DNA of 64,000 bases from an uncultured Gammaproteobacteria bacterium (GTDB lineage Bacteria; Patescibacteriota; Patescibacteriia; 2-12-FULL-60-25): positions 120,591-184,590 of the forward strand of contig CAZMOB010000001.1 in the NCBI GenBank assembly GCA_964567995.1, given 5' to 3'. The translations under genes were made by a program, and so were the position numbers. The notes under the pieces were generated by a model, which ran no database searches, was not told the origin of the DNA, and saw only the letters and a list, made by a program, of their open reading frames with translations. Shown here piece after piece: positions 6,920-64,000 of the stretch. Numbering within the stretch: position 1 is the stretch's first letter; every line of letters begins with the position of its first letter.

Positions 6920-6964
6920 TTTCTGGGAATACTGTACGCTGGATCGGAAAAGCTTGTCTATACT

Positions 6965-8488: not shown

Positions 8489-8620
8489 GTAAGCCGGGAT
8501 GTATAAGCCCTCACTTCGGACAACAACTCGCAACTTCACCAATTTTAATCGCGTTGCGATTGTTTTAGCGGTGTTGCTCAAACACGTTGTCCTCGTTCAA
8601 GCATGTACATCCCGGCTTAC
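8489..8620. other. Structured intergenic element closed by a 15-bp perfect inverted repeat
   Basis: GTAAGCCGGGATGTA (8489-8503) and TACATCCCGGCTTAC (8606-8620) flank 102 nt. The interior holds further complementary segments (AACAACTCGCAAC / GTTGCGATTGTT; GGACAAC / GTTGTCC). Confidence 0.4.
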
Positions 8621-8630
8621 CCAGTTTTTG

Positions 8631-8639
8631 TGATATACT
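8631..8639 (+). promoter_or_regulatory. Extended -10 promoter element upstream of the first epimerase gene
   Basis: TGaTATACT at 8631-8639, 13 nt before ATG 8653. No clear -35 element. Confidence 0.3.
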
Positions 8640-8652
8640 CCATGGGAATTGT

Positions 8653-9675
8653 ATGCCTGCTGCTCCTTTTGCTCGTCGGACCGTTTTAGTAACGGGTGGT
8701 GCTGGATTCATTGGATCCCAGCTGTGTGAAGCGTTGGTTAAAGAAGCGAACGTTATTTGCTTGGATAACTTCTCAAGTAGCACGCCTCGCAATATTGAAG
8801 CGTTGTTGCAGCATCCGTCGTTTGAATTCGTGAATCACGATATCACGCAGCCTTTGCAGCTTGATCAGATGCGAGAGCTGGAACGCTTCAAGTTGTCGGT
8901 GCAGGGGATTCAAGAGATCTATCATTTGGCTTGTCCAATTTCGAAGACGCATTATGAACAATTCCGGATCGCGACGATTCTTACGAATTCCATCGGTTTG
9001 AAGAATGTGTTGGATGTCGCCGTACGTTATAAAGCGAAAGTCTTGTATGCTTCATCATCAGTGTTGTATGGAGGTCGTCGCCCAGAGTCGCCGTACGTTC
9101 GTGAGGAATCGCCGTGTAATATTGACCATTTGACTTCGCACGGGGCTTACGACGAAGGGAAACGCTTTAGTGAGTCTGTGATCCAGACCTACGCAGATGT
9201 CTATGGATTGGATGTGAAGATCAGCCGTATTTTCCGAGCGTATGGTCCGCGGATGAAAATTGCTGACGGACATTTGCTGCCAGACATGATTATGAGTGCT
9301 CTTGATGGTCAGGACATTGTGATTCGAGCGCCTGAAGGAGCACGTGTCTCGTTGTGCTACGTCAACGATCTGATCGATGGCTTGGTGCGTCACATGGGAA
9401 CATCGATGGACGTCACGGTGGTGAATCTGGGATCGGATCATGATTTGTCGTGGGCCGAAGTCGCAGAAAAGATCATCCGTCTTACAAACAGCTCTTCGCG
9501 CGTACGTTTCGAGCCGCCGGAAGATCGCTCCTGGACGGAAACTCCGCTCCCGGATCTTCAACGTGCTCGTACCTTGCTGCATTGGGTGCCCCTCGTGCGT
9601 CTCGAAGAAGGTTTGGCTAAGATGATCGACTTTGCGCGCTCGCACCGCCAACAGATTGGTGTTTACCATAGCTAA
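8653..9675 (+). CDS. NAD-dependent epimerase/dehydratase, UDP-glucuronate decarboxylase (UXS)-like, copy 1
   Basis: Start moved to ATG 8653. VTGGAGFIGSQL Rossmann motif and AYDEGKRF catalytic YxxxK context. Whole-length similarity to the next gene. Confidence 0.85.
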   Translation: MPAAPFARRTVLVTGGAGFIGSQLCEALVKEANVICLDNFSSSTPRNIEALLQHPSFEFVNHDITQPLQLDQMRELERFKLSVQGIQEIYHLACPISKTHYEQFRIATILTNSIGLKNVLDVAVRYKAKVLYASSSVLYGGRRPESPYVREESPCNIDHLTSHGAYDEGKRFSESVIQTYADVYGLDVKISRIFRAYGPRMKIADGHLLPDMIMSALDGQDIVIRAPEGARVSLCYVNDLIDGLVRHMGTSMDVTVVNLGSDHDLSWAEVAEKIIRLTNSSSRVRFEPPEDRSWTETPLPDLQRARTLLHWVPLVRLEEGLAKMIDFARSHRQQIGVYHS

Positions 9676-9685
9676 CTGACCTCTT

Positions 9686-10708
9686 ATGTCTGACGCTCCT
9701 GTCTTCGAAAAAAAGAATGTGTTGGTCACGGGTGGGGCCGGTTTCATCGGGTCGCACCTGTGTGAACGCCTACTTCAAGATTGCCGTGTGATCTGTTTGG
9801 ATAATTTCACGACCAGTGATGTCGAAAACATCACTCATTTGTTGAAACATCCGGATTTCGAATTCATCCGTCACGACATCAACACGCCATTCGATCCGGA
9901 ACAGTTCCCGGAGCTCACACGCTTCAAAGTGAAATTCCAAGGCATTCAAGAGATTTACCATTTGGCCTGTCCGACGAGTCCCAAGAAGTTCGATCAGTAT
10001 CGCATGCAGACGCTGTACGCCAACTCGCTTGGAACAAAGTACGGTCTCGATGTAGCCGTTCGCTATCGCTCTAAATTTTTGCTTGCGTCGAGTGCGGTTG
10101 TATACGGACCACGTCCCGCGGATGGTCATGTATTCACTGAAACCGAATTCGGAACATCAGATCTGTTGTCGCCTCGTGCTTGTTATGACGAAGGAAAGCG
10201 TTTTGCGGAAGCGGCGAGCGTAACGTATCGCAATGTGCATGGGATCGATGTCCGTATCGCCCGTATTTTTCGCACCTATGGTCCTCGCATGCCTCTTTAC
10301 GACGGTCAGATGATCTCAGATTTCATTACAGATGCACTTGATGGCAAAGAGTTGGAGTTATACGGAGATGAAACCTTCCGCACCTCGCTGGTGTACGTCG
10401 GTGATGTCGTGGATGGGTTGATGAAGCTCATGCGTGCACCAGCAGAGGTGCAAATTGTGAATATTGGAAGCGATGTGGACGTGCCGCTGATTGATGTCGC
10501 TCAGCGAATTATTGAAATGACCGGTTCTGTTTCCAAAATCACCTTCAAACCACCGCTGCTTTTCATGTCTCAGCTCGGGTTGCCGGATATGACCAAATCG
10601 AAAGAAGCGCTTGGTTGGATTCCGCTGGTGACGTTGGATGATGGATTGAAGCGAACGATTGAATATACGATGTCGCATAAGTCGTTGTTGAGTTTCCGGA
10701 AGACGTAA
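9686..10708 (+). CDS. NAD-dependent epimerase/dehydratase, UDP-glucuronate decarboxylase (UXS)-like, copy 2
   Basis: VTGGAGFIGSHL, CYDEGKRFAEA, RIFRTYGPRM. Tandem paralog of 8653-9675. Confidence 0.88.
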   Translation: MSDAPVFEKKNVLVTGGAGFIGSHLCERLLQDCRVICLDNFTTSDVENITHLLKHPDFEFIRHDINTPFDPEQFPELTRFKVKFQGIQEIYHLACPTSPKKFDQYRMQTLYANSLGTKYGLDVAVRYRSKFLLASSAVVYGPRPADGHVFTETEFGTSDLLSPRACYDEGKRFAEAASVTYRNVHGIDVRIARIFRTYGPRMPLYDGQMISDFITDALDGKELELYGDETFRTSLVYVGDVVDGLMKLMRAPAEVQIVNIGSDVDVPLIDVAQRIIEMTGSVSKITFKPPLLFMSQLGLPDMTKSKEALGWIPLVTLDDGLKRTIEYTMSHKSLLSFRKT

Positions 10709-22071: not shown

Positions 22072-23148
22072 ATGTCCTCTGTCGAATATCGTGCCCCTGA
22101 GCCGCCTCTCTCGCCTGAAGCCAGAGTCAAGCTCAAAGCCCGCATTCTTGAGAGCATGGGGCGGATTATTGAGAGGTATGAAGCCTTCTATCTCAGTGTA
22201 GACGAGATGCATACGTTCGTCGGTTCACCCTTGACGAACGCTCGTTATGCAAGATTCGAAACTTGGCTTGGGATGCTTTCTGAGAAGAAGATCCTTATTT
22301 CCTCAGCTTTATCCCTCGATCAAGTCCATTTCGCGCAAGATGTTTCACGCGTTGTTCTTCTGTATCAAGCTCTACAAGACCTTTCCATGGGTAGGTCCGT
22401 GGCAACAGATATACGTAATGAATATGAGGAAAGGCCTCTTTCTGCAGATGAATTTCTTCTAAGAGAAGAAGATCTTCCATTGTGGAATGAATTCCCCTCA
22501 GAAGAAGAGGTCAAAACTGCCTTCAACTTTGATTCGATCTGGAGCGACGAATACTGGCAGGGCCGTAAGCTCAAAGATGCAAATGACGCTGCTTATACAA
22601 CCAAAGAAACTCTCAAAGATCGCAAAGGTTTTGAACCAACAGATCAAGACCTTTTGAATGTGGGATATGCAGTAGATGATTCAGATAGACGTCATGCTTT
22701 TCTTCGTGCAGTGGAAGAAGTTTATGTAAAAGAACGGCTTCAACCGGCCAAGATCTTCGAGATTGGAGATATTATTGATCAAAAAAAGAAAGAAGCTGAA
22801 GCACGAGGCAAGACAGTTGAGGACTATCTTACAACGAAAGAGCTTCTCGAAGCCTTTGATGAGGCGTCCGTCCGTCCGGCTACTCTCAAAGAACTTTTGG
22901 CTTATGCAAAGACCCGCTGGAAGCCAATTAATGATCCGAATCAATCCCTCACAGAAGAAGAAATGGATCAACACGCGAACGCCCCCTATATCTGCGCTCT
23001 TGGTTCCGTATTCTCGAATACCCTTGGGCAGCGCAGGGTTCCATACCTTCGCCTGGATCGCGATGGGCGTCGGTTAAGTATCGATCACTTCAGCGACAAC
23101 TGGTACATGAGCCGTCGGTTTCTGGTCTTCCGCAAGTCATTTTCATAA
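22072..23148 (+). CDS. Member of the unrecognised RFLVFRK paralog family (dispersed copy P0)
   Basis: First ATG is at 22072 (the ORF track starts at TTG 22063). It shares PLTNARYARFETWL, LYQALQDL, ADEFLLREEDLPLWNEFPSEEE, LTTKELLEAFDEASVRPATLKELLAYAKTRWKP, ALGSVFS and RRFLVFRK with the array at 58977-64000. Confidence 0.85.
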   Translation: MSSVEYRAPEPPLSPEARVKLKARILESMGRIIERYEAFYLSVDEMHTFVGSPLTNARYARFETWLGMLSEKKILISSALSLDQVHFAQDVSRVVLLYQALQDLSMGRSVATDIRNEYEERPLSADEFLLREEDLPLWNEFPSEEEVKTAFNFDSIWSDEYWQGRKLKDANDAAYTTKETLKDRKGFEPTDQDLLNVGYAVDDSDRRHAFLRAVEEVYVKERLQPAKIFEIGDIIDQKKKEAEARGKTVEDYLTTKELLEAFDEASVRPATLKELLAYAKTRWKPINDPNQSLTEEEMDQHANAPYICALGSVFSNTLGQRRVPYLRLDRDGRRLSIDHFSDNWYMSRRFLVFRKSFS

Positions 23149-51886: not shown

Positions 51887-52393
51887 TTATGGCTGTTGTG
51901 GAACAGCTTGTCCGGCTGGTGGTTGCCCCGGTTGTCCGCCCGTCCGTCGCAGGATCATGGCATCGCCTCCAGCTGGTCTGATTTGGATAGTGGAAGCGGT
52001 AATACTCCCATCGGAGTTGGTTGTTCCGGAGACCATTACGTTTGTTCCGTTCGTGAGATCGCTCATGGTCCCATCGGTCATTTTTCCGACGCGCGTCGAG
52101 GATGAGGTTAGGACAATTTTCGAGCCACCGTCCATCAGTTTGAGTGTGAGACTGGAATCATCTTTGCTCACGATTTCACCATTTGAGAAGCCTCCGTTCC
52201 CGGCGCCAGCACCCGCCAATCGTCCAGCTCCGCCCGCCGCCCCTGCTCCGCGGAATGTGCCAGCTGCATTCGCCCCCCGAACACCTGCCTGATTCGGCGT
52301 TTGTTGTTTTCCATAGACCATTCCACCGTAAAACCCAACACCACCAGCGGCCAACACGCACACGAGTAAGGAAAGAATGAATTTATTATTCAT
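51887..52393 (-). CDS. Secreted Gly-rich protein with DUF5666-like beta domain
   Basis: Start moved to ATG 52393 (MNNKFILSLLVCVLAAGGVGFYGG). A Gly/Ala-rich linker, then ..LTLKLMDGGSKIVLTSSSTRVGKMTDGTMSDLTNGTNVMVSGTTNSDGSITASTIQIRP. Confidence 0.55.
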   Translation of the reverse strand: MNNKFILSLLVCVLAAGGVGFYGGMVYGKQQTPNQAGVRGANAAGTFRGAGAAGGAGRLAGAGAGNGGFSNGEIVSKDDSSLTLKLMDGGSKIVLTSSSTRVGKMTDGTMSDLTNGTNVMVSGTTNSDGSITASTIQIRPAGGDAMILRRTGGQPGQPPAGQAVPQQP

Positions 52394-53606
52394 AACGTAA
52401 AGCTTCAATAGGATTAAGTTTCGCGGCGCGTTGCGCAGGATAGAACCCGAACACCAACCCGATTCCAACCGACACGCTCACGGCCAGCGCGACTGAGGTC
52501 CAAGAGACGACGGTTGGCATCTGCATGAGCGAGCTCAGGATCTTGGAGATCCCGTAGCCCAACAAGATGCCGAGCGAGCCGCCCATGAGCGTGAGCAGAA
52601 TCGCTTCGCCAAGGAACTGGCCGACAATCTCCGTTTTCTCGGCCCCGATGGCCTGACGCAAGCCGATTTCGCGCGTGCGTTCGGTGACGGTAGTGAGCAT
52701 CATGTTCATGATGCCAATGCCACCGACCAATAAAGAAATACCAGCGATCGAGGCGAGTAAGGCGGTGAAGGTATCGGTAATGCTCGAGGCTGCACTCACA
52801 AGATCTGATTGGTTCAAGATGCTGAAGTCGGCACGATCAGGCGTTGGGATTTTATGACGATCAAGTAAGACATTCGTGACGGCTTCTTGGGCCAGCGTCA
52901 TCGAAGCTGCGTCTCTCGCTTGAACGCTAATGGTGCTGACTGTGTCACTACCGGTCAGAAAAGCATTCATCGTCGTGACGGGGATGAAGACTGTATCATC
53001 CTGGTTCGAGAAGCCGGAGCCACCTTTTGCCGCCGTCACACCGACAACGGTGAAATCTAGACCATTGATGCGGATCCGTTCACCGATAGGCTGCGCACCT
53101 TCTCCGAACAGGTCGGTTCGAGTTGTGGGACCAAGAACAGCCACCTTGGATTTAGAGGCAACTTGCGCGTCTGTAAAAAACGCACCTGCTTCCAAGCCGA
53201 CATTTCGGACGCCCAAGTACGCGGGCATGGATCCCAACACGGAGGTATTCGTGTTTTTGCCACGAGCAGTTACTTGGTAGCGTCGAGACGACTCTGGGGA
53301 GACGGCAAGAACGCCTTCGGCTTCGCGCAAAGCGATCGCGTCGTCTAGTGTAAGCGTTTGCGCTGATCCACGACCTGCGCTGACCGTGACTCCGGCTCCG
53401 CGTTGCGCTCCCGGCATGACCATGAGCAAGTTCGAACCGATCGATTGAATGTTCGATTCGATCTGCGCTTTGGCTCCTTGTCCAATCGACAACATGGCGA
53501 TGACGGAGGCGATGCCAATAACGATGCCGAGCATGGTTAACCCTGAGCGAACTTTGTTCGAGGACACGCCAAGATAGATTTCCGCGACTTGATCGGTGGG
53601 TCTCAT
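52386..53606 (-). CDS. ABC transporter permease, MacB/FtsX type
   Basis: An N-terminal TM helix, a large periplasmic MacB_PCD-like domain, and a C-terminal FtsX 3-TM domain (..GGIGIMNMMLTTVTERTREIGLRQAIGA..). Confidence 0.88.
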   Translation of the reverse strand: MRPTDQVAEIYLGVSSNKVRSGLTMLGIVIGIASVIAMLSIGQGAKAQIESNIQSIGSNLLMVMPGAQRGAGVTVSAGRGSAQTLTLDDAIALREAEGVLAVSPESSRRYQVTARGKNTNTSVLGSMPAYLGVRNVGLEAGAFFTDAQVASKSKVAVLGPTTRTDLFGEGAQPIGERIRINGLDFTVVGVTAAKGGSGFSNQDDTVFIPVTTMNAFLTGSDTVSTISVQARDAASMTLAQEAVTNVLLDRHKIPTPDRADFSILNQSDLVSAASSITDTFTALLASIAGISLLVGGIGIMNMMLTTVTERTREIGLRQAIGAEKTEIVGQFLGEAILLTLMGGSLGILLGYGISKILSSLMQMPTVVSWTSVALAVSVSVGIGLVFGFYPAQRAAKLNPIEALRYE

Positions 53607-54310
53607 ACGTGTTGGGTTTGCTGTCGTACATGGGCATTCTTCCGATCTTCGACGAGCTCTCCATCACGAATCACCAGGATTCGTTCCGCGTGTTCTGCGA
53701 CATACGGTTCATGCGTGATGAGGACGATCGTTCGGCCTTGTCTGTGTAATTTCTGAAATGTTCCAAGAACCAGGTCACCCGTTTTCGAATCTAAGTTCCC
53801 GGTTGGTTCGTCAGCCAGAATGATCGCTGGGTCGTTAACGAGCGCACGAGCGATGGCGACGCGCTGCATCTGTCCGCCGGAGAGTTGGTTTGAGAGGTTC
53901 AGATGTTTGTCTTCGGCGAGGCCGGCATCAACCAAGGCGCGAGCTGCTCGTTCGGCGCGTTCCTCTGGTGGGAGTTTGGCGTAGACCAAAGGGAGAGCGA
54001 CATTGCGGAGAGCGGTGGTACGAGGGAGGAGATGGAAGGCTTGGAACACGAAACCGATTTTTGTTTTGCGAATCCGTGCTAATTCATCGGCTGGCAATGA
54101 AGAGACGTCGACACCATCGAGCAGGTAAGAGCCGGATGTCGGGGTATCAAGCGCGCCGATGATATGCATCAGGGTCGATTTTCCCGAGCCAGAGGGGCCC
54201 ATGATGGCAACGAATTCGCCCTTCGCGATCGAGAAGGAAACGCTTTTCAAGACGCGCGTGGTTTCTTTGCCGGTGACATATTCTTTTACAAGGTCGTGTG
54301 CGTCGATCAT
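53603..54310 (-). CDS. ABC transporter ATP-binding protein (MacB/LolD type)
   Basis: [35 protein letters not shown]. Overlaps the permease gene by 4 nt. Confidence 0.92.
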
Positions 54311-54313
54311 AGA

Positions 54314-56320
54314 TTAACGCCCGGTTTGTCGGATGAAGGTCGCGCCACCGCCTGCGGCTGCGCCGCCACCTAGACCTGGAATCCGTAATCCACCCGCCGC
54401 GCCGGTACCTGTTTGTGTCGTTCCGGTTCGAGCGGCGGATGTCTGGAGCGCTGGATCAATCGTACGTGTCACGACATAATCACCTTCCTGCAGTCCTGAC
54501 AGCACTTCTGTTAGCTGATCATTAGCGAGTCCTGCTTGAACAGTACGTGTTTCAGGAGGCGTCGTTGGAACAATACCTTGCGCAGTAAGAGCTAGGGCCG
54601 GATCAATATTCGTCAGAACCTGTACCGATCCACCCGTTCGCAGTGCGACGTTCGGGATAGTGAGGACATCGGTCCGGGTCGCCGTGATGATCGCTGCGGA
54701 AACACTCATACCTGGTTTGATCCGATCATCTTGGGTGACGAACAAAATCTTCACACTGTAATTCACAACACCTTGACTCACGGTGCCGATGGAATCGACT
54801 TCGCTGACATTTCCAGCGATCGTCAGATCGGGAAGTGCATCGAAGGTCAGTGTAGCTTTTTGGCCAACCTGAATTTTTGAAACATCAACTTCATTCAAGC
54901 TGATCTGGGCGATCTTGGCGTGGGTGAGCAAGGTCACGAGCGCCGTCGAAGCGGAGACAGCGTCATGTTCTTTGACGGAAACTTTCGCGATGATCCCCTC
55001 GAATGGGGCGCGGATTGTATAGTTCTGTAGGAGTTCCTGCGCGTCGCGCAGCTTATTTTGGGCATCCACGACCGACGCTCGACGCTGTTGAATCGTATTC
55101 TGTGCGCTCGAAAGATCGAGTGGATCGGTTCCGCGTTTCAATTTGTTGAATGAGGCTTGGGCTTCTTGGACACGTTCCTCAGCCGATGCGATCTCGGCGG
55201 GCTCAGGTCCTTTCTTGAGTTTGTCGAGCGTTAAGCGAGCCTTGTCTAAATTACGCACACCACTCGAATAGGACTCTCGAGCCGAGTCGAGTGATTGTCT
55301 GAGCGAGGTCAGAGAGGTAAGTCTGCTCGTGATATTCGATCGATCGCTTTGGGCGGTGCTCTTTAGAGAATTTAGAGTGCTTTCACTCAACGCGGCTGAA
55401 GACACAGTATTTTGCAGTACATCATAAACGCCCTGTATAAGTGGATCCATGAGAGTCAGCGTGCTCTGCGCTTTTTGAATGACCTCATCAATAGTATCGG
55501 TCGATTCATTCTGCGCTTGGAGCCGATCTGTTAGCGTTTTCAGTTCCCGAACGGGCGTGCGAGCTTGGGCGTAGAGATTCTTGGTGGTTTGCAGCTTGGC
55601 CGAATCTTGAGCGGACAAAAATTGCTCATAGGCATCGTTGGCTGAAGTTCGATCAACACCTAACACATCATCTGCGCTATACAGTGTTTGCGTTAGCGTT
55701 TGAGACAGGGTTTTTAGGGTTGGAACGCTGGTGTTATAGGCGTCACGGATAATTTTTGGTGTAACCCCATCAGATGAAAGTCCAACAGTTTCTTCTTGTG
55801 CACGGATGTCAGCTTCCGCCTGGCGTAAGTCGAGTTCATCCGGAGGTTCGCGTAGTTGATCGAGGGCTCGTTGCGCTTGTCGAACAGAATTCTCCGCTTG
55901 AATCACGGCTACTTGGTCTGGTGGTTGTTGGAGCTTGCGTAAGGATAACTCAGCTGACGCGAGAGAGATCTGAGCATCGCTCACGCCTCGACTCGCATCA
56001 CGGATGGTTTTCTGGGCTTCTTTCGGATCCAATTGAAATAGGATTTGGCTGCTGGAGACATTCTGACCGGATTGTACAAGGACTTTAATAATCTCAGCTG
56101 AAACGGTTGGTTTCACATCGATCTGATTCTGGCCAGATACCTGACCACTTCCGGAGATCGAGGTAATAACGGTTCCTTTGGTAGCCGCAGCTACAACATA
56201 CCGCAGTGGCTCTTGAGGTGTGCGCATCTTTGCCCAAATTGTTCCGCCGCCAACTAAGCCAAGTCCGAGGATGATAAACCAAACTTTGTGTTTCAGAAGT
56301 GTTTTTTTGAAGTTTGCCAT
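54314..56320 (-). CDS. HlyD/MacA-family periplasmic adaptor with very long coiled-coil hairpin
   Basis: N-terminal TM helix, a biotinyl-lipoyl-like segment (VKPTVSAEIIKVLVQSGQNV), about 350 aa of heptad-rich sequence, a beta-barrel/MPD region and a Gly-rich tail. Confidence 0.8.
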   Translation of the reverse strand: MANFKKTLLKHKVWFIILGLGLVGGGTIWAKMRTPQEPLRYVVAAATKGTVITSISGSGQVSGQNQIDVKPTVSAEIIKVLVQSGQNVSSSQILFQLDPKEAQKTIRDASRGVSDAQISLASAELSLRKLQQPPDQVAVIQAENSVRQAQRALDQLREPPDELDLRQAEADIRAQEETVGLSSDGVTPKIIRDAYNTSVPTLKTLSQTLTQTLYSADDVLGVDRTSANDAYEQFLSAQDSAKLQTTKNLYAQARTPVRELKTLTDRLQAQNESTDTIDEVIQKAQSTLTLMDPLIQGVYDVLQNTVSSAALSESTLNSLKSTAQSDRSNITSRLTSLTSLRQSLDSARESYSSGVRNLDKARLTLDKLKKGPEPAEIASAEERVQEAQASFNKLKRGTDPLDLSSAQNTIQQRRASVVDAQNKLRDAQELLQNYTIRAPFEGIIAKVSVKEHDAVSASTALVTLLTHAKIAQISLNEVDVSKIQVGQKATLTFDALPDLTIAGNVSEVDSIGTVSQGVVNYSVKILFVTQDDRIKPGMSVSAAIITATRTDVLTIPNVALRTGGSVQVLTNIDPALALTAQGIVPTTPPETRTVQAGLANDQLTEVLSGLQEGDYVVTRTIDPALQTSAARTGTTQTGTGAAGGLRIPGLGGGAAAGGGATFIRQTGR

Positions 56321-56332
56321 ACCGTAAGCGGC

Positions 56333-56785
56333 TTAGGGGCGAGTAGGGAAGAGGCGAATCAAGCGCGCTTCAATTTGGCCTTGTTCGTTTGGAAGGCCGA
56401 ACACACCAACTTCTCTGTCGGGTCGAAGATCTCCGAGCGAAGCGGTTCCACGGTCGACGCGTAGCACGGTTGAGCTCGTGATCAGGACGTTTTGTTCAAA
56501 CTGATCTTGGCCTTCAATCATAAAATTCGTGCCGGTGGCAGAGAGGATACGGCCGAACACGCCATTCGGAAGCGGCATCGGTCGATGTGGAGGCGCTGGA
56601 ATCAAGGTCTTGCTCCCGCGATGAGGCTTGAGCATGTCAGGGTAGTGATCGCACCAATTGGAAAAATGACGAGTGCGCCGCTCGTTGGTTTTTACTCCCG
56701 CGAGAAACGCCAAACACAGGAGAAGGAGAACGATTAGAACACCCAGAACGATCTGAACTGCTTTTGAGGTGATAAATGGTTGCAT
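56333..56785 (-). CDS. Membrane-anchored hypothetical protein (DUF5666-like)
   Basis: 150 aa. An N-terminal TM helix and a C-terminal ..GTASLGDLRPDREVGVFGLPNEQGQIEARLIRLFP beta domain. Confidence 0.5.
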   Translation of the reverse strand: MQPFITSKAVQIVLGVLIVLLLLCLAFLAGVKTNERRTRHFSNWCDHYPDMLKPHRGSKTLIPAPPHRPMPLPNGVFGRILSATGTNFMIEGQDQFEQNVLITSSTVLRVDRGTASLGDLRPDREVGVFGLPNEQGQIEARLIRLFPTRP

Positions 56786-56791
56786 AGGAAA

Positions 56792-57202
56792 TTAGGTCGG
56801 ACGGAGCAGGACGGCTTGGCGGACTTCACGCAGACGCAAGAGAAAACCAATCACAAAGGTCAGACAAAGGACGAGTCCGAGGCCAAGGACGAGCGATTGG
56901 ATGGGCACTGTTTCGATGAGACTCCAGGCGGTTTCTTGAAAATTGGCAAATACAATATCCGGATCAGAAAAACCTAAGCGAATGAGCTGAAAGAAGGAGG
57001 ATTCTTGAATTTCCAACCAGACATCAGACCAAAAAAAGGTCACATAGCCAGCCAGCGCGAGCGTGGCGAGGCTCGCGATCCCAGCTTCTAAACGAATGCG
57101 GTGAATGGTTGCCCGTTGAATCTGGGCGCTGATGTTAGCCTGCAAATGGGCGGGCGCATCAGGGGTCATGAGCTGTTCCTTCAAAAACGCACGTTCTGTC
57201 AT
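56792..57202 (-). CDS. Putative anti-sigma factor / membrane protein
   Basis: 136 aa with 2-3 TM helices, immediately downstream of the ECF sigma gene. Confidence 0.45.
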   Translation of the reverse strand: MTERAFLKEQLMTPDAPAHLQANISAQIQRATIHRIRLEAGIASLATLALAGYVTFFWSDVWLEIQESSFFQLIRLGFSDPDIVFANFQETAWSLIETVPIQSLVLGLGLVLCLTFVIGFLLRLREVRQAVLLRPT

Positions 57203-57231
57203 AGTGGCTAGCGATACTACGAGGTCTAGGC

Positions 57232-57819
57232 CTATTTTGGTGCAGGCGGCTCAACTAAGCGCCCGACGATCTCTTTGAGGGCGATCAGTGCTCGGCGATA
57301 GCGACTTTTGACTGTATTTAAAGGTTCACGGACGCTATCGGCGATTTCCTGGAAAGTCAGGTCTTCCCCTTCGTGGAGCAGGAGAATCGTGCGAGTTTTT
57401 TCGGGAAGTTCCCGTAGAGCTTGTTCTAAAAGGTCGGCACGATCCGCTCGCTCCAGAAGCTCCGGTGGGAGTGGACGTTCGTCTTCGATCCGATCTTGAA
57501 AGGGTTCTTCCAAAATGGATTGATCATTCAGAGTGGAGAAGGGAATCGCCTTTTTCTTTTTGAGATAATCGAAGGCGGTATTCCGAGCGATCGTAAAAAT
57601 CCAACTCTTAAACGAGCGCTCTGCTTGAAACGAGGACAGCTTGCGCCAGGCTTTGAGACAGGTTTCTTGAACGAGATCTTCTGCAACGGCTGGTTCTCCA
57701 GACAGGCGTAAAATAAAACGATACAGCGGTCCCGTATAGCGCGTGAGCAGGGTGTTGAAGGCCTGTGGATCGCCTTTTAGGTGCCGTGCAACCAGCTCCG
57801 TATCTGTCAGAAGAGGCAT
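57232..57819 (-). CDS. ECF-type RNA polymerase sigma-70 factor
   Basis: Region 2 (..DLVQETCLKAWRKLSSF..SWIFTIARNTAFDYLKKKK) and region 4 (LPEKTRTILLLHEGEDLTFQEIADSVREPLNTVKSRYRRAL). Confidence 0.9.
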   Translation of the reverse strand: MPLLTDTELVARHLKGDPQAFNTLLTRYTGPLYRFILRLSGEPAVAEDLVQETCLKAWRKLSSFQAERSFKSWIFTIARNTAFDYLKKKKAIPFSTLNDQSILEEPFQDRIEDERPLPPELLERADRADLLEQALRELPEKTRTILLLHEGEDLTFQEIADSVREPLNTVKSRYRRALIALKEIVGRLVEPPAPK

Positions 57820-57861: not shown

Positions 57862-58668
57862 TTATTTGTTCCCGACGACATTGATGAACGGCAGGCTTGA
57901 GCCAGGCACCATGGTTTCTGGGAGTTGACCATTCCATTTTTTAACAGCTTCAACCTGTGCTTCCAATGCTTTGAGTGCGATGTACTTGTCATTGTTGGCC
58001 GCTTCGGATTGGAGCTTGATAGCGGTGGCCTCGGCTTGTGCTTGGGCGACACGTTGTTCAGCTTGAATCTTGGCGGTCTTCAATTCGTTCTCCGCGCGTT
58101 TCGAATCTTGTTCGGCGACTTGCTTGCGCTCGATCGCAGCTTCGAAGGCGGGGGAGAAGGATTCGTTGACCATCGAGAATTGGCTTACGATGATGTGATT
58201 GGCGGCGACAGAGGCACGAACGGTTTCTTCGATTTCATCTTGAACGAGTGCGCGCTGGTTCAAAATCTCTTCGGCCGTGTACTTGGCGATCGTTTGCTTG
58301 ATAGCGGCTTCGAGAGAGGGTTGAATAACTTTTTCTTCAAAGGCTGGCCCAATTTCTTGATAGATTTTTCCGACTTGCACAGGATCAAGCTGATAGAGAA
58401 GCGCACTTTCGATATTCACGACTTGCAAATCTTTGGAGTAGGCTTCTGAAGATTCGACGGTGTATTTGTTGCTGCGCACATCCATTTTGACGACACTTTC
58501 GGCGATGGGTACAACAAGATGAAGTCCTGGTTCAAACACGCGACCCTCAAAAGCGCCCCAGCGCAAGACGACTCCGCGTTCTCCCGCGTCAATCGTCGTG
58601 AAGGGATTGATAATCAGGACGACAATGATACCCACAACGATAAGAATAGCGGTGAGGACTTTTTTCAT
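57862..58668 (-). CDS. SPFH/band-7 (prohibitin-like) membrane protein
   Basis: Start moved to ATG 58668 (MKKVLTAILIVVGIIVVLII). SPFH core ..ERGVVLRWGAFEG.. and a C-terminal coiled coil (AEQRVAQAQAEATAIKLQSEA). Confidence 0.85.
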   Translation of the reverse strand: MKKVLTAILIVVGIIVVLIINPFTTIDAGERGVVLRWGAFEGRVFEPGLHLVVPIAESVVKMDVRSNKYTVESSEAYSKDLQVVNIESALLYQLDPVQVGKIYQEIGPAFEEKVIQPSLEAAIKQTIAKYTAEEILNQRALVQDEIEETVRASVAANHIIVSQFSMVNESFSPAFEAAIERKQVAEQDSKRAENELKTAKIQAEQRVAQAQAEATAIKLQSEAANNDKYIALKALEAQVEAVKKWNGQLPETMVPGSSLPFINVVGNK

Positions 58669-58771
58669 AGATTGGCCTAGTTTGCCTGGTGTGAAGCCCC
58701 CTGAGAAGGGGGTGGGTTCTAAATTGACGAAAGTGCAGTTCGCCCGTATGATAGCGCCACAATTCACCCAT

Positions 58772-58845
58772 TCGGAGATCGTCTAATGGTAGGACAGCGG
58801 CCTTTGAAGCCGTGAATCTTGGTTCGATCCCAAGTCTCCGAGCCA
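58772..58845 (+). tRNA. tRNA-Gln (anticodon UUG), CCA encoded
   Basis: TCGGAGA-TC-GTCT-AATGGTA-GGAC-A-GCGGC-CTTTGAA-GCCGT-GAAT-CTTGG-TTCGATC-CCAAG-TCTCCGA-G-CCA. The U1-A72 pair and G73 are as in bacterial tRNA-Gln. Confidence 0.9.
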
Positions 58846-58976: not shown

Positions 58977-60002
58977 TTACGTAATTTCCTTCCGAAACAC
59001 CAAGAATCGATCTGTTGCATACCAGTAACGGTTAAAATCATCCCCATGTAGTCCAGAAGGCTCATCATCATACGAATCCATACCAAACCGATCATCTTTT
59101 ACTTTATGGCTAAGATGGGGAACGGTACGATCCCCTCCTAAGGTAGGTGAGAATACGGAACCAAGTGCGTAGATGTGAGTTGCATTTGCTCTTTGTGCTT
59201 TCTCTGTGTCGCTTAGAGCCGTTTTTGGTTTCCAGTATTTCTTGGAATAAGCCAACAGCTCTTTCATCGTCGCCGGACGAACGCCAGCTTCATCAAAGGC
59301 TTCTAATACTTCTTTGGTTGTGAGCTTTGCTAGAGACTCTGTTTTTTTCTTCTGTTTTTCACCAATCAGATCATCAATATAAAAAAGTCTTGCAGGCGGC
59401 AAAACTTCGGGGAGATGAGTGACGTCCACGGCCTGTAAGAATGCTTGCCGCTTTGCTGGATCTGCGACCGCATAGCCAATGTTCACAAGATCCATGTCCA
59501 TGACCGTGAATCTTGTTTTGAGATCCCAACCCGGTTCGTCATAGTAGTCCCAAACCGTATCAAGCTTGCAGTAGGTTTTAATCTCTTCTATTGGGGGAAG
59601 TTCTCGCCAGTCCGGAAGATCTTCTGGCTCAAGCAGAAACTCGTCTGGAGCCAACTCGTAACGTGCACGAATACTCTCAGACGCTGGTCGACCCTGTGCA
59701 ATGTCAGCCAGTGCTTCGTAAAGTCGTACCAGATGAGATACATCGGCGGCGACTCGTTCTTGTTCAATATCAGTTTTGATGCCTGCTCCTTTGTTTGTCA
59801 TCTGATCAAGCCATTGTTCGAATAACCTGTATCTTGCCTGCGTGAGGGGAGTACGTTGCAACTCACCAAGATCCTCTTCTTTTCTATAGAGAGGTTCCAA
59901 TCTGATAATGATTCGGCGCATTTCGTGTTTGATACGTTCTCCAAGCTTCGCCTGGGTTTCAGGAGAGGATGAGCTGGACGGAGGGGACTCGAAAGAGAGC
60001 AT
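58977..60002 (-). CDS. RFLVFRK-family paralog P1 (unrecognised family)
   Basis: 341 aa. Motifs: RLEPLY, PLTQARYRLFEQWL, LYEALADIAQGRP, YELAPDEFLLEPEDLPDWRELP, LTTKEVLEAFDEAGVRPATMKELLAYSKKYWKP, IYALGSVFS, DRFLVFRK. Confidence 0.85.
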   Translation of the reverse strand: MLSFESPPSSSSSPETQAKLGERIKHEMRRIIIRLEPLYRKEEDLGELQRTPLTQARYRLFEQWLDQMTNKGAGIKTDIEQERVAADVSHLVRLYEALADIAQGRPASESIRARYELAPDEFLLEPEDLPDWRELPPIEEIKTYCKLDTVWDYYDEPGWDLKTRFTVMDMDLVNIGYAVADPAKRQAFLQAVDVTHLPEVLPPARLFYIDDLIGEKQKKKTESLAKLTTKEVLEAFDEAGVRPATMKELLAYSKKYWKPKTALSDTEKAQRANATHIYALGSVFSPTLGGDRTVPHLSHKVKDDRFGMDSYDDEPSGLHGDDFNRYWYATDRFLVFRKEIT

Positions 60003-60019
60003 ACGAGGACTGATTTTTA

Positions 60020-61012
60020 TTACACTTCTCTGCGAAACACTAAAAATTTATCCTCACTTCTCCAATGATTGTAGAAAGCTGATCCATCTAATTTGCGTAT
60101 ATTCTCTCGATAATCAAGACATGGTACGGTCCGGATGTCTTTTGTATACGTACAGGCGGTTCCCAACGCATGGATATAGCGAGAATTGGCAGACTGATCT
60201 ATCTCCTCTTTCGTCCAAGGATGTGTGGGATTCTGCTCAGGTATCCAGTATTTTCTGGAGTAAGCGAGGAGTTCTTTGAGGATCGCGGGACGAACCCCCG
60301 CCTCATCGAACGCTTCTAGAAGTTCTTGGGTGGAAAGCGCGTCGGAATGAGCTGAGTCTTGTTTTTGCTTTTCTTCGATTATCTTCGTGATGTCGAAGAT
60401 CCTGGCCGGAGGAAGAGCTTCCGTAAAATGATCAACGTCGATGCTGAGTAGGAATGCTTCACGCTTGGCGGGATCGTGTTCGGCATATCCTGCGACTAAA
60501 AGATCGTGTTCTTTTAGTTCAAAATCTCGAAGGGATCGTCCCTCTGAATAATCTATGCCAAACACCCAATCAAGCCTGAATGTTGTTTTGAGAGCTTCTT
60601 CAGATGGAAGTTCGTTCCAACGAGGAATGTCCTCTGGTTCAAGCAGAAACTCATCAGGCGCCAAATCGTAACGCCTCTGATTGCGTTCGGAGATCGGTCG
60701 GTCATGTTTAAGGTCGGCAAGTGCTTCGTAGAGTTGAACGACTTGTGAGATATCGGTTGTTAGCTTTGATCGATCGATACTTGTTCGGACCGATGATCCC
60801 TTTTTTGTTAGCTCTGCAAGCCATTTCTCAAATAACCTATATCTTGTTTGTGTCAGAGGGCTATTCTGTATACGCTCAACTTCCTCATGATCGAGATACA
60901 AAGGTTCCAGCCTTTGAATGGTCCGTCGCATATCGAAAAGAATCTGACGACGAATGTGCTCCTTTTGGTCTGGAGAAATGGGAGTGAATGTGTGCTGATC
61001 GGGGGAGCGCAT
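60020..61012 (-). CDS. RFLVFRK-family paralog P2
   Basis: The ORF track starts at TTG 61018. The first ATG, at 61012, gives MRSPDQHTFTPISPDQKE.., matching the P3 N-terminus. The same motif set is present, ending DKFLVFRR. Confidence 0.85.
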   Translation of the reverse strand: MRSPDQHTFTPISPDQKEHIRRQILFDMRRTIQRLEPLYLDHEEVERIQNSPLTQTRYRLFEKWLAELTKKGSSVRTSIDRSKLTTDISQVVQLYEALADLKHDRPISERNQRRYDLAPDEFLLEPEDIPRWNELPSEEALKTTFRLDWVFGIDYSEGRSLRDFELKEHDLLVAGYAEHDPAKREAFLLSIDVDHFTEALPPARIFDITKIIEEKQKQDSAHSDALSTQELLEAFDEAGVRPAILKELLAYSRKYWIPEQNPTHPWTKEEIDQSANSRYIHALGTACTYTKDIRTVPCLDYRENIRKLDGSAFYNHWRSEDKFLVFRREV

Positions 61013-61030
61013 ACACAAAAGAGTATCTGC

Positions 61031-62026
61031 TTATTCGTCCTTGCGGAAGACAAGAAATCGATCAGTTCGTTTCCAGGTGCTGTTAAATTCTGCTCCATCC
61101 AGTCCGCGTTTATTCTCATGCCACTCAAGACAGGGGGCAACTCGGTCACCGTCTCGAGACATGCCTGATGAGTACGCGGATCCAAGCGCATAGATAGACC
61201 ACGCATGAGCATACTGATCGACCTCCGCATCGGCCGAAGGATCCCTGTCTTCAGGCGTCCAATACTTTTTGGAGTAGGCCAAAAGCTCATGGAGCGTTGC
61301 AGGGCGAACACCAGCTTCGTCAAAGGCTTCCAAGAGTTCTTTGGTTGTGAGTTCTTCGGGATGACTTGGGTCTTGTTTCCGCTTGTCTGCGATGATGCTC
61401 CTGATATCGAAAATCTGGGCGGGTGGAACGGTTTCTGAAAAACGATATCGATCAACGAGATACAATAATGCCTCACGTTTAGCGAGATCGTGCTCGGCGT
61501 AGTGAACATCCAGTAGATCTAGCCCTTTCAGATCAAAATCCTCAAGCGTTCGTCCTTCGGAATAGTCATTTTCAAAGATTCGATCAAGTCTGTATGTTCT
61601 TTTTAGGCTTTCTTCAGATGGTAGTTCGCTCCAATAAGGAATATCTGGTCTTACAAAACGAAACTCGTTGGGGGCGAGGTCGTATTCTTTTCGAAGGTCT
61701 TCGGGGATCGATCTATCCTGTTTGAGATCGGCGAGCATGCGATACAGCTTTATAACCAGTGCTACATCTTCCATCAGTTTCATTTGATCTGTATTTGCTT
61801 GGAGGTGGGTTGTTTGTTTTCCCATTCCATTGAGCCCGTCTTCAAATAGATGGTATCTAGTAGTATCTAAGGATCTCGCTTGTGTGGCACTGAGTTGTTC
61901 TTCATCAAGATACAGGGGTTCCAGTCGTTCAATGATCCGTTGCATTTCCGAAAGAGCTCGACGACGAATACGCTCCTTTTGATCTGGAGAAAGGGGAGTG
62001 AACGTGGGCTGATCAGGCGAGCGCAT
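61031..62026 (-). CDS. RFLVFRK-family paralog P3
   Basis: 331 aa. MRSPDQPTFTPLSPDQKE.., LTTKELLEAFDEAGVRPATLHELLAYSKKYWTPE, IYALGSAYS, DRFLVFRK. Confidence 0.85.
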   Translation of the reverse strand: MRSPDQPTFTPLSPDQKERIRRRALSEMQRIIERLEPLYLDEEQLSATQARSLDTTRYHLFEDGLNGMGKQTTHLQANTDQMKLMEDVALVIKLYRMLADLKQDRSIPEDLRKEYDLAPNEFRFVRPDIPYWSELPSEESLKRTYRLDRIFENDYSEGRTLEDFDLKGLDLLDVHYAEHDLAKREALLYLVDRYRFSETVPPAQIFDIRSIIADKRKQDPSHPEELTTKELLEAFDEAGVRPATLHELLAYSKKYWTPEDRDPSADAEVDQYAHAWSIYALGSAYSSGMSRDGDRVAPCLEWHENKRGLDGAEFNSTWKRTDRFLVFRKDE

Positions 62027-62043
62027 AAAATAGATATGTCCGA

Positions 62044-63051
62044 TTAGTCCTTGCGAAAGACCAGAAATTTCTCATGGATTCCCCAGGTGCCGCGAGGATC
62101 AGAACCATCTAACCGCCGCTGGTTATCACGCCAAACAAGGCAGGAAAGGGATCGGTCATCCGTACCGGCTACAGTATACGAGTAGATAGATCCGAAGGCG
62201 TAAACCACGCTGGCAGAATGAACCGGTTCAGCTTCTTCTGGTATTCGGGGACGATTGGGATCATTCTCAGGACACCAGTATTTTTCGGAATAAGCGAGAA
62301 GTTCTTCAAGGGTCGCAGGACGAACATTTGCTTCGTCGAAGGCGTCTAGGAGTTCTTTGGTTGTGAGTCCTTCGCCATGGTAGGGGTCTAGATTCAGTAT
62401 TTGCTCAATAACTTCAGAGATGTCGAATATTCTGCCTGGCGGAGGGTTTTCTGAAAAATTCTCACGATCAACAAGGTGAAGGAAGGCTTCTCGTTTGGCG
62501 GGATCCTGTTCCGCATAACCGAAATCGATCAGATCCCGATCGTTTGGGTCAAACGCCCGGATGCTTTTTCCTTCGGAATAATCAATTGCAGCAATCCAAT
62601 CAAGCTTGAATCTTCTTTTAAACTCTTGTTCGGATGGCAATTCCGTCAGGTGAGGAGTATCTCCGCGTTCGAAGAGGAATTCGTCGGGAGCGAGATCGTA
62701 TTTGTGTTTCTTTCGGATATCTTCTGGAATAGGTCGACCATGTTTGAGATCGGCCAACGCTTGGTAAAGACCAACGACCTCAGAGACGGCATTGGCTAGC
62801 TCTCCCTGATGGTGAGAGACGGCACGAGCGAAGTCAGGAGTTATATGCGTTTCAAGCCAGCGCTCGAAGAGTGCGTAGCGAGCTTTATCCAATGGTTTGT
62901 GTTGAATGTCGATGAGCTGTGGTCCATCAAGATAGAAGGGTTCTAGTTCTTCCAGCTTCTCTTTCATGGCTGTAAGAATACGTAATCCAAGCTTACGTTC
63001 CGCTTCGGGGCGCGGCTCCAGGTCGGGAAGACGTTCTACTTGGGATCGCAT
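62044..63051 (-). CDS. RFLVFRK-family paralog P4
   Basis: 335 aa. PLDKARYALFERWL, LYQALADLKHGRP, LTTKELLDAFDEANVRPATLEELLAYSEKYWCPE, VYAFGSIYS, EKFLVFRK. Confidence 0.85.
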   Translation of the reverse strand: MRSQVERLPDLEPRPEAERKLGLRILTAMKEKLEELEPFYLDGPQLIDIQHKPLDKARYALFERWLETHITPDFARAVSHHQGELANAVSEVVGLYQALADLKHGRPIPEDIRKKHKYDLAPDEFLFERGDTPHLTELPSEQEFKRRFKLDWIAAIDYSEGKSIRAFDPNDRDLIDFGYAEQDPAKREAFLHLVDRENFSENPPPGRIFDISEVIEQILNLDPYHGEGLTTKELLDAFDEANVRPATLEELLAYSEKYWCPENDPNRPRIPEEAEPVHSASVVYAFGSIYSYTVAGTDDRSLSCLVWRDNQRRLDGSDPRGTWGIHEKFLVFRKD

Positions 63052-63072
63052 AGGGAAAATAAAAGTTCTTTG

Positions 63073-64000
63073 CTAGCGAGTTTCGAACACAAGAAAGCAG
63101 TCATGCTCGTCCCATAGCGTGTCATACGCTGCACTTTTAAGTTCGCAAGCGTCGACCCCGTTATCACGAGTGTGTCTCAGTTCGGGGACAAACATCTCGT
63201 GAGATGAGCTGATAACTGAGCCTAATGCATAGATGTGATGGGTATGGTGTTTGTTAGAACGCCAGTATTTTGCTGCATAGGCAAGGAGCTCTTGGAGGGT
63301 AGCCGGACGCAATGCTTGTTTATGAATCAATTCCAGGGCTTCATCCGTCTCGATTCGGTCTGGATGATCAGGGCCACACTCTGCGATAAGGTCTTTGACG
63401 AAGATGAAGCGTCCGATGGGAGCAATTTCCGCACGCTGCTCTTTGCTCATGCTTTGGAGGATACTCTCCCGTAAAAGAGAGCTATTTAAGCGTCTCCCAA
63501 GTTTTGATAAATCCATTTCCGTTAAAGCGAAGTCCTGAAGGGGCCTTCCTTCTTGGTAATCGTGTCCGACATAACTTAGGTTAAAGGTCGTTCGTAGAGA
63601 GCTTGGAGACGGCAGAACGGTCCAGTCTGGGACTTCTGCATCCGAAAGGAAGAGCTCTCCAGGACTTATCTGATGCATTTGGCAATAGGCCAAAAGCTTC
63701 GTGTCGAGCGGACCGCCTTGGGTGAGTCTTTGGAGAGCGGCATAGCCTTCCATGATCTCATGAAGATCTTGCTGCCATTGGCCTTGATCGATGTCCGCTG
63801 GGTTCTGTTGCAATCGAGTACATTCACCTAACCAAGCTTCAAAATGAGCATACCGCTCTTTCGTCAACGTTCTCTTCTTAGAGACAGCTGAGTCTGGCTT
63901 GGGATTATAGAACGCTTCATACGTTCTGATCCGTACTTCCAGTTCATACAGAATCATCTGACGAATGTCTCGTCGTTGTTCGGCTGTATAGAAGTTTTCG
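63073..64000 (-). CDS. RFLVFRK-family paralog P5 (most divergent); N-terminus runs off the window
   Basis: The ORF track starts at M 63957, but the frame stays open to 64000. The upstream residues ..TAEQRRDIRQ align with the KERIRRR helix of the other copies. ALRPATLQELLAYAAKYW, IYALGSVIS, and the ending CFLVFETR. Confidence 0.8.
   Translation of the reverse strand, partial: ENFYTAEQRRDIRQMILYELEVRIRTYEAFYNPKPDSAVSKKRTLTKERYAHFEAWLGECTRLQQNPADIDQGQWQQDLHEIMEGYAALQRLTQGGPLDTKLLAYCQMHQISPGELFLSDAEVPDWTVLPSPSSLRTTFNLSYVGHDYQEGRPLQDFALTEMDLSKLGRRLNSSLLRESILQSMSKEQRAEIAPIGRFIFVKDLIAECGPDHPDRIETDEALELIHKQALRPATLQELLAYAAKYWRSNKHHTHHIYALGSVISSSHEMFVPELRHTRDNGVDACELKSAAYDTLWDEHDCFLVFETR

Follow-up and report, generated by a model that had tools for sequence, protein, structure and literature searches.

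Diversity-generating retroelements (DGRs) are enriched in Patescibacteria, where their target proteins have no membrane anchor and no known function; the clade-2 targets of the candidate phyla radiation (CPR) have neither a recognisable domain nor a transmembrane segment, and new variants of the C-type lectin fold are expected in this group (Roux et al., 2021, PMC8144416). Cyanobacterial genomes contain several paralogs of DGR-type binding domains on other N-terminal domains, many of them without homology to a template repeat, and it has been proposed that the diversification components are removed after variants have been fixed (Vallota-Eastman et al., 2020, PMC7517822). Here we describe a gene family in a 64,000-nucleotide (nt) stretch of contig CAZMOB010000001.1 (positions 120,591 to 184,590; hereafter the window) from a genome that is probably patescibacterial. 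Twelve of its members form a head-to-tail array that crosses the end of the window, and a 13th stands alone within it. The C-terminal domain of the array proteins and the variable domain of Patescibacteria DGR targets are homologous, and the array copies are not themselves DGR substrates. The reading that we favour, with a probability of roughly 0.6, is that these genes constitute a germline-encoded repertoire of DGR-type binding-domain variants carried on a constant N-terminal module.

An earlier interpretation of the DNA letters alone (the sequence-only reading) had placed five consecutive, homologous open reading frames (ORFs) on the minus strand at the end of the window. Their coordinates were borne out, with spacings of 17, 18, 17 and 21 nt; the five can be aligned end to end, every motif block that had been picked out is found, and the fifth ORF has no upstream stop codon within the window. 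The prediction that the array runs on beyond the window edge also held. Three Logan contigs (L001, L002 and L007), retrieved by exact look-up, match the window at 100% identity in the overlaps (5185 and 4318 nt, 0 mismatches), overlap one another exactly, and were merged into the full locus. This contains 12 head-to-tail genes with gaps of 6–41 nt, numbered here in the direction of reading, so that copies 8 (cut) to 12 fall within the window. The advice to look past position 64000 for partners thus yielded seven further copies, and no toxin or secretion gene. The genes, and the tRNA gene beside them, are as follows.

58772–58845, plus strand: tRNA-Gln(TTG), convergent with the array; a marker of its 3' boundary and not a functional part of it
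58977–60002, minus strand: array copy 12 (the last), ORF of 341 amino acids (aa), identical to protein P0006, with the C-terminal domain
60020–61012, minus strand: array copy 11, 330 aa from the ATG at 61012, identical to P0001
61031–62026, minus strand: array copy 10, 331 aa, identical to P0002; the copy used for AlphaFold2
62044–63051, minus strand: array copy 9, 335 aa, identical to P0004
63073–64000, minus strand: array copy 8, cut by the window edge; the full-length protein has 319 aa (P0014) and the gene would extend to 64032 in extrapolated window coordinates
beyond copy 8, up to about 71003 (extrapolated), minus strand: array copies 7 to 1, from the merged Logan contigs
22072–23148, plus strand: solo 13th paralog (P0013), 358 aa

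For copy 11, a mechanical ORF list gives a TTG start at 61018 (332 aa), whereas P0001 and the alignment of the paralogs favour the ATG at 61012. The tRNA-Gln gene lies 131 nt past the stop codon of copy 12 and converges on the 3' end of this last gene. The array therefore ends here and does not start here, as had been supposed.

Copies 1 to 12 encode proteins of 329, 346, 331, 311, 322, 326, 319, 319, 335, 331, 330 and 341 aa, and all 13 reading frames are intact. Pairwise protein identity among the 13 copies is 25–55%, a range at which synonymous sites between the paralogs are saturated. The paralogs fall into one subgroup of copies 3–8 and another of copies 9–12 with the solo copy, while copies 1 and 2 are outliers and the most divergent (27–37% identity). 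The impression that neighbours share about half of their residues fits copies 9–12 (41–55% identity) but not copy 8, which is only 28–31% identical to them. As had been noted from the translations, the proteins are acidic (pI 5.0–6.2 in all copies) and devoid of signal peptides and transmembrane segments.

The sequence-only reading could not place the family, and the sequence libraries do not place it either. Searches of the window copies against Pfam and NCBIfam gave no meaningful match, PADLOC and PHROGs returned only chance-level matches (E 0.04 and 0.2), and the PDB sequences, searched with two profiles, again gave nothing meaningful. Pfam found no domain in 10 long, 10 mixed and 71 distant homologs, and no immunity or SUKH-type match in the window copies. 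Lectin_C, FGE-sulfatase and DUF1566 were not matched even at E <= 1 in the five window copies, 10 relatives and 71 distant homologs; a possible likeness to DUF1566 ('WRLPT..EL...VRCVR') is accordingly unsupported by the Pfam scans and is kept only as a lead. What did not stand is the family's isolation, since its C-terminal domain has the DGR-target relatives described below.

AlphaFold2, given copy 10 and an alignment of 68 sequences, returned a model with a mean predicted local distance difference test (pLDDT) score of 93.4 and a predicted template modelling (pTM) score of 0.88. The model comprises an N-terminal helical module (residues ~14–115), a middle module (~116–195, ~80 aa) with little regular structure but modelled with high confidence, and a C-terminal alpha/beta domain (~196–331, ~125 aa). 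In a Foldseek search against the PDB the full-length model had no significant match, with C-type lectin-like domains (CTLDs) ranked best at scores weaker than those of the domain-only model below, and a fold search of BFVD gave nothing significant. When the C-terminal domain was modelled alone (pLDDT 90), all 20 of the 20 best PDB matches were CTLDs, at E 0.05–0.5, probability up to 0.87 and a template modelling score of 0.41–0.46, values that are below significance; no solved DGR variable protein was among the best 50 fold matches. The order of helix and strands in the predicted domain fits the CTLD fold of snake-venom snaclecs and BDCA2/CLEC4 receptors, and by eye the 'ALGS' motif would sit at the place of the CTLD 'WIGL'. 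The array domain differs from these CTLDs in having no conserved cysteines and no sequence similarity to Lectin_C, FGE-sulfatase or DUF1566. From the models, the C-terminal domain likely belongs to the C-type lectin fold class.

The confident model also argues against decaying pseudogenes. That most copies are decaying, unexpressed duplicates is hardly credible: although copies 1 and 2 are strongly diverged and score lowest against the DGR-target profile, the 12 frames are intact over ~1 kb each and retain the family motifs, the family alignment gives a confident fold, and the tight spacing fits co-transcription.

The connection to DGRs came from small proteins that share the C-terminal domain. 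A pattern search seeded with seven such proteins gave 215 loci in GTDB species genomes, of which 80 were listed and supply the locus figures given here. Most of the 80 records carry Patescibacteria/CPR names, including Niyogi-, Lipton-, Uhr-, Magasanik-, Kuenen- and Colwellbacteria. ORF calling in these loci showed a recurrent short second match about 300 nt downstream of the gene, and in ~30 of the 80 the last 131–138 nt of the small gene are repeated ~480–520 nt downstream. The mismatches between the two repeats fall only, or almost only, at A residues of the downstream copy (19/19 in L013, 23/23 in L019, 24/24 in L039 and 25/25 in L069), and a ~330-aa reverse transcriptase gene with a YxDD motif comes next in 19 of 20 such loci. 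A variable region, a template repeat and a reverse transcriptase together are the signature of a DGR, and hence the small family constitutes the Patescibacteria DGR target family. The relationship holds in both directions. A profile of the 13 paralogs scores every verified target at 30–53 bits. Conversely, a profile built from verified targets only (E values at Z = 1.84e9) finds the solo copy best (3e-13), followed by copy 10 (1.5e-10), copies 11 and 12 (about 2e-6) and copies 6, 8 and 9 (<2e-3), with copies 1 and 2 scoring lowest. The C-terminal domain of the array proteins thus belongs to the same homologous family as the variable domain of these DGR targets. In copy 10 the corresponding segments are:

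61034–61441, minus strand: C-terminal domain (residues 196–331), a homolog of the DGR-target variable domain in Patescibacteria
about 61034–61180, minus strand: equivalent of the DGR variable region, roughly the last 46 codons

The array proteins have the motifs G-x-RPAT-x-ELLA(F/Y), ALGS, R-x-V-x-x-L, R-x-L, W and RF-x-V-RK in common with the clade-2 targets. The two groups are also alike in being soluble, in having no signal peptide, transmembrane segment or Pfam domain, and in occurring in the same lineages. They differ in size, as the DGR targets have about 200 aa whereas the array proteins have about 320–345 aa with the additional N-terminal helical and middle modules, neither of which occurs in the 80 listed DGR-target loci. 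In some Patescibacteria-type genomes small genes for the DGR-type domain themselves stand in tandem runs of 3–6, among them six in L089 and three 159-aa genes in L078, so that arrays of such domains are not unique to the window:

L089, 3558–6929: run of small genes
L078, 4785–6297: run of small genes
L017, 4080–6815: run of small genes
L043: run of small genes

Could the array copies themselves be DGR targets, diversified in trans from a template repeat and a reverse transcriptase elsewhere in the genome? The homology of the domain to DGR variable domains speaks for this possibility, as does the ~360 kb of the source contig that lies beyond the inspected span, and remote DGR targets are known in cyanobacteria (Vallota-Eastman et al., 2020, PMC7517822). 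The searches made at the array covered the window and the merged locus, about 80 kb in total, and the evidence from them leaves this explanation a slim chance. Neither the window nor the merged locus contains a partner resembling a template repeat for a single one of the 13 copies, array or solo, whereas such repeats are present in the ~30 of 80 homologous loci that served as the positive control. Comparison of the window with itself revealed no A-biased repeat, and nucleotide mismatches between the paralogs are unbiased. The 3' ends of the copies are similar only at the ordinary level of these paralogs (60–70% nucleotide identity), so that one template could fit at most one copy. A hidden Markov model (HMM) of the 19 reverse transcriptases from the homologous loci found nothing in the six-frame translation of the window or in the merged array, nor in the relatives' loci L003–L006, L008, L009 and L090–L103. 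At the level of assembled contigs, the sequences from runs SRR13208889 and SRR13208906 are 100% identical across the array.

The codons tell the same story. At the variable codons of the verified targets the template codons rank AAC > GAC > AAT, and the third base is C in 57% and A in 0%. At the equivalent codons of the paralogs the third base is T in 30%, A in 26%, C in 26% and G in 17%, which equals their overall third-position usage; A is thus abundant here, unlike in the verified targets, and the NNC codon footprint of adenine mutagenesis was not found in the paralogs. The array copies are not DGR substrates. Unlike the DGR targets, the array proteins come without a template repeat, a nearby reverse transcriptase or the NNC footprint, and their variety consists of 13 fixed genes.

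We then compared where the copies diverge with where DGRs act, by placing 13 paralog and 27 verified target sequences on a common domain profile. A column was taken as DGR-variable if, in half of the targets or more, codon position 1 or 2 corresponded to an adenine in the template. The mean entropy among the paralogs is 2.68 bits at the 21 DGR-variable columns; the other 25 columns of the variable region have 1.37 bits, and the remaining columns of the domain 1.68 bits (Mann–Whitney, p = 3e-6 versus the other variable-region columns and 2e-7 versus all other columns). A scaffold is kept (RPAT-ELLAY, ALGS, R-VP-L, R-L, W and FLVFRK), its residues from ALGS onwards standing between the variable columns, and the DGR-variable columns alternate along the predicted beta-strands.

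This pattern has to be set against a simpler explanation, in which a soluble protein with a structural or adaptor role was duplicated, the copies are functionally redundant or sub-functionalised, and the extra divergence reflects weak constraint on exposed residues. The variable-equivalent positions do alternate on predicted beta-strands or lie in predicted loops and are likely exposed, and surface positions drift fastest anyway, so that the entropy difference is no proof of selection for diversity. The age of the copies, with 25–55% identity and unbiased nucleotide mismatches, fits slow drift, and no ligand, partner or regulatory signal has been identified. On the other side, the retention of twelve intact genes by a small genome speaks for selection acting on every one of them. 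Moreover, within the same stretch of ~46 residues the scaffold columns are conserved while their neighbours approach maximal entropy, and in the homologs a mutagenesis machinery hits these same positions, which implies that variation there is functionally useful. We regard redundancy as unlikely, though far from negligible.

When 5.8 billion proteins were searched with a word index, no more than about 16 relatives came up, located on the 438-kb source contig, on a 301-kb contig and on a few metagenome fragments, and a full-length family scan of the GTDB species genomes found no relative. The genome of the 301-kb contig has at least five copies, as one pair and singles; a scan of JGI metagenomes gave 14 loci and no second large array. 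The closest relatives of each array copy are other copies, and members outside the genome most resemble the solo copy. As no array copy has a closer relative outside, the array is a lineage-specific expansion, and the view that it represents a large investment is upheld by the family's 13 genes.

HMMER with a five-copy profile matched 167 proteins among 1.84 billion cluster representatives and, beyond the full-length relatives, most of these matches span only profile positions ~223–328. The proteins concerned are small ones of 140–230 aa, others with two or three domains, and others again of ~600 aa in which the matching part is C-terminal. The modules are also recombined. The middle module and C-terminal domain are found with other N-termini, for example in the ~620-aa proteins P0031 and P0039, and the N-terminal module is found with other C-termini in P0086 (578 aa) and P0131 (519 aa), which suggests that the N-terminal helical module is an independent adaptor module. 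In P0086 and P0131 long runs of ~35-aa 'SL.GVDTPEAM..R' repeats, without a Pfam match, replace the lectin-like domain. P0031, P0039, P0040, P0044 and P0051 (594–636 aa) have an unrelated N-terminal region of ~420 aa with no Pfam match; one gene for such a middle plus C-terminal fusion (L009, 8090–9955) is single-copy among UvrD, MetK and YceG genes. P0082 and P0097 combine the N-terminal module with a short C-type-lectin-like domain. P0008, from the pair in the relative (L003, 439–2070), was called as 543 aa, with only the last 331 aa belonging to the family; its upstream part overlaps an opposite-strand HExxH gene (DUF45-like, by eye) and its start is probably over-called.

The gene neighbourhoods bear on a further proposal, made in the sequence-only reading from the layout of the array, that the copies act as immunity (or orphan immunity) proteins within a polymorphic-toxin system or else form a family of anti-defence genes. 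Polymorphic-toxin immunity arrays likewise consist of tandem, diverged, small cytoplasmic paralogs; the present proteins are acidic as well and have no housekeeping annotation. The array here has no toxin or secretion partner and no known immunity domain. No toxin, Rhs/CdiA-like, secretion or phage gene is present at either flank of the complete array, its neighbours do not travel with the family elsewhere, and the single-copy relatives (L008 and L009) are surrounded by housekeeping genes. With no match to Pfam immunity families, PADLOC or PHROGs, and with a conserved domain that is that of the DGR targets, this interpretation is very improbable, and we do not retain the analogy of layout on which it was based.

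We therefore return to a germline repertoire of binding-domain variants, and set out what it would entail. One soluble three-module protein would have been expanded in tandem in a single lineage, giving the 12 array copies and the solo copy, with the N-terminal helical (~115 aa) and middle (~80 aa) modules held constant while the C-terminal ~125-aa domain varies. Diversity would be stored as separate, old and intact genes and not made by a DGR. The outcome would be a fixed set of proteins that differ in binding specificity and have the N-terminal module in common. In this respect tandem duplication and divergence would do the job of a DGR, as a germline counterpart of the somatic diversification that DGRs provide. 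Molecular recognition is the best reading of the proteins' role, with host, phage or self as candidate targets; the homology to DGR targets, the missing DGR features and the concentration of divergence at particular positions are observed, whereas ligand binding is inferred from the behaviour of variable domains in characterised DGR systems, as is, more generally, the value of a repertoire.

Several points weigh against this reading. To speak of a 'binding repertoire' is to argue by analogy with those DGR targets that have been characterised, and the structural match to the C-type lectin fold is below the significance level. The positions varied by DGRs are surface positions and would drift fastest under relaxed constraint too. 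With no transmembrane or signal-like hydrophobic segment in any copy, there is no evident reason to place the proteins at the cell surface. Finally, the ~360 kb of the source contig outside the searched span may hold a DGR.

A more specific version goes further, and we hold it only tentatively, as doubtful: the 13 genes would be a germline repertoire of C-type-lectin-like receptors on a common cytoplasmic module that replaces DGR hypermutation in an ultra-small symbiont, acting as an innate, pattern-recognition-like set of sensors for phage or host molecules. If this were true, the array would offer a library, assembled by nature, of variants of the enigmatic Patescibacteria DGR targets that have passed selection, and the common N-terminal module, which also occurs in fusions with other repeat domains, would represent a new adaptor for signalling or effector functions.

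The principle of a germline repertoire, namely non-DGR paralogs of DGR binding domains, is already known from cyanobacteria. The cyanobacterial paralogs are dispersed, belong to the FGE-type subclass of C-type lectin domains, frequently have kinase or caspase-like domains as fusion partners, and occur in genomes with DGRs. The array differs in its domain subclass, which is absent from Pfam, in a novel N-terminal module, in the strictly tandem arrangement of 12 genes, and in that no DGR is seen. What is new is an unannotated family tied to the Patescibacteria DGR targets, two undescribed modules, and a tandem 12-gene array that diverges at DGR-variable positions. The DGR-target domain also exists, then, as a stable multi-gene family, joined to N-terminal and middle modules that no database describes. 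This points to retroelement mutagenesis and tandem duplication as two interchangeable evolutionary ways in which reduced genomes can build up a binding repertoire. In practical terms, the 13 variants, fixed by nature and sharing a scaffold that is modelled with confidence, could be expressed and screened for ligands much more easily than a hypermutating locus could be studied.

The surroundings of the array comprise the following genes, with the tRNA-Gln, the SPFH protein and the extracytoplasmic function (ECF) sigma factor forming its flank on the 3' side.

57862–58767: SPFH/Band 7 gene, just downstream of the array
57232–57819, minus strand: ECF sigma factor, just downstream of the array
52386–56320, minus strand: HlyD-ABC-MacB/FtsX efflux operon, downstream of the array
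L007 1–3894 (extrapolated window ~71044–74937), plus strand: AAA_5 ATPase and HEIGH protein

Two small unannotated ORFs accompany the ECF sigma gene (52386–57819 region, minus strand), possibly encoding an anti-sigma factor, and a sigma-70 ECF gene is also located near a family member of the 301-kb relative (L006, 3753–4325). Beyond copy 1, and divergent from it, is the gene for an AAA_5 ATPase of 750–763 aa (Pfam E = 1e-6; Walker A motif GELGSGKT), beside a protein of at least 529 aa with a HEIGH motif (HExxH, zincin-like). Neither protein has relatives in the PDB. As these two genes have no counterparts near other family members, they were not counted as parts of the system. The solo copy follows bPH_2, DivIC and SurA_N genes and directly precedes tRNA-Thr and tRNA-Gly; tRNA genes thus adjoin the ends of both the array and the solo copy.

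Within the array, extended -10-like boxes (TGGTATACT and TGATATACT) precede the start codons of copies 3 and 6 by 6–7 nt, and GGTATACT, likewise a consensus match only, is found 18 nt before copy 1.

merged array 6000 and 8938 (extrapolated window ~68938 and ~66000), minus strand: -10-like boxes, consensus matches only

Judged by their sequence, these boxes may be internal promoters giving leaderless or near-leaderless transcripts.

The window contains one further tandem duplication, a pair of ordinary sugar-nucleotide metabolism genes with 57% nucleotide identity.

8587–9675 and 9686–10708, plus strand: NAD-dependent epimerase/dehydratase tandem pair
6770–8467: subtilase beside the epimerase/dehydratase pair

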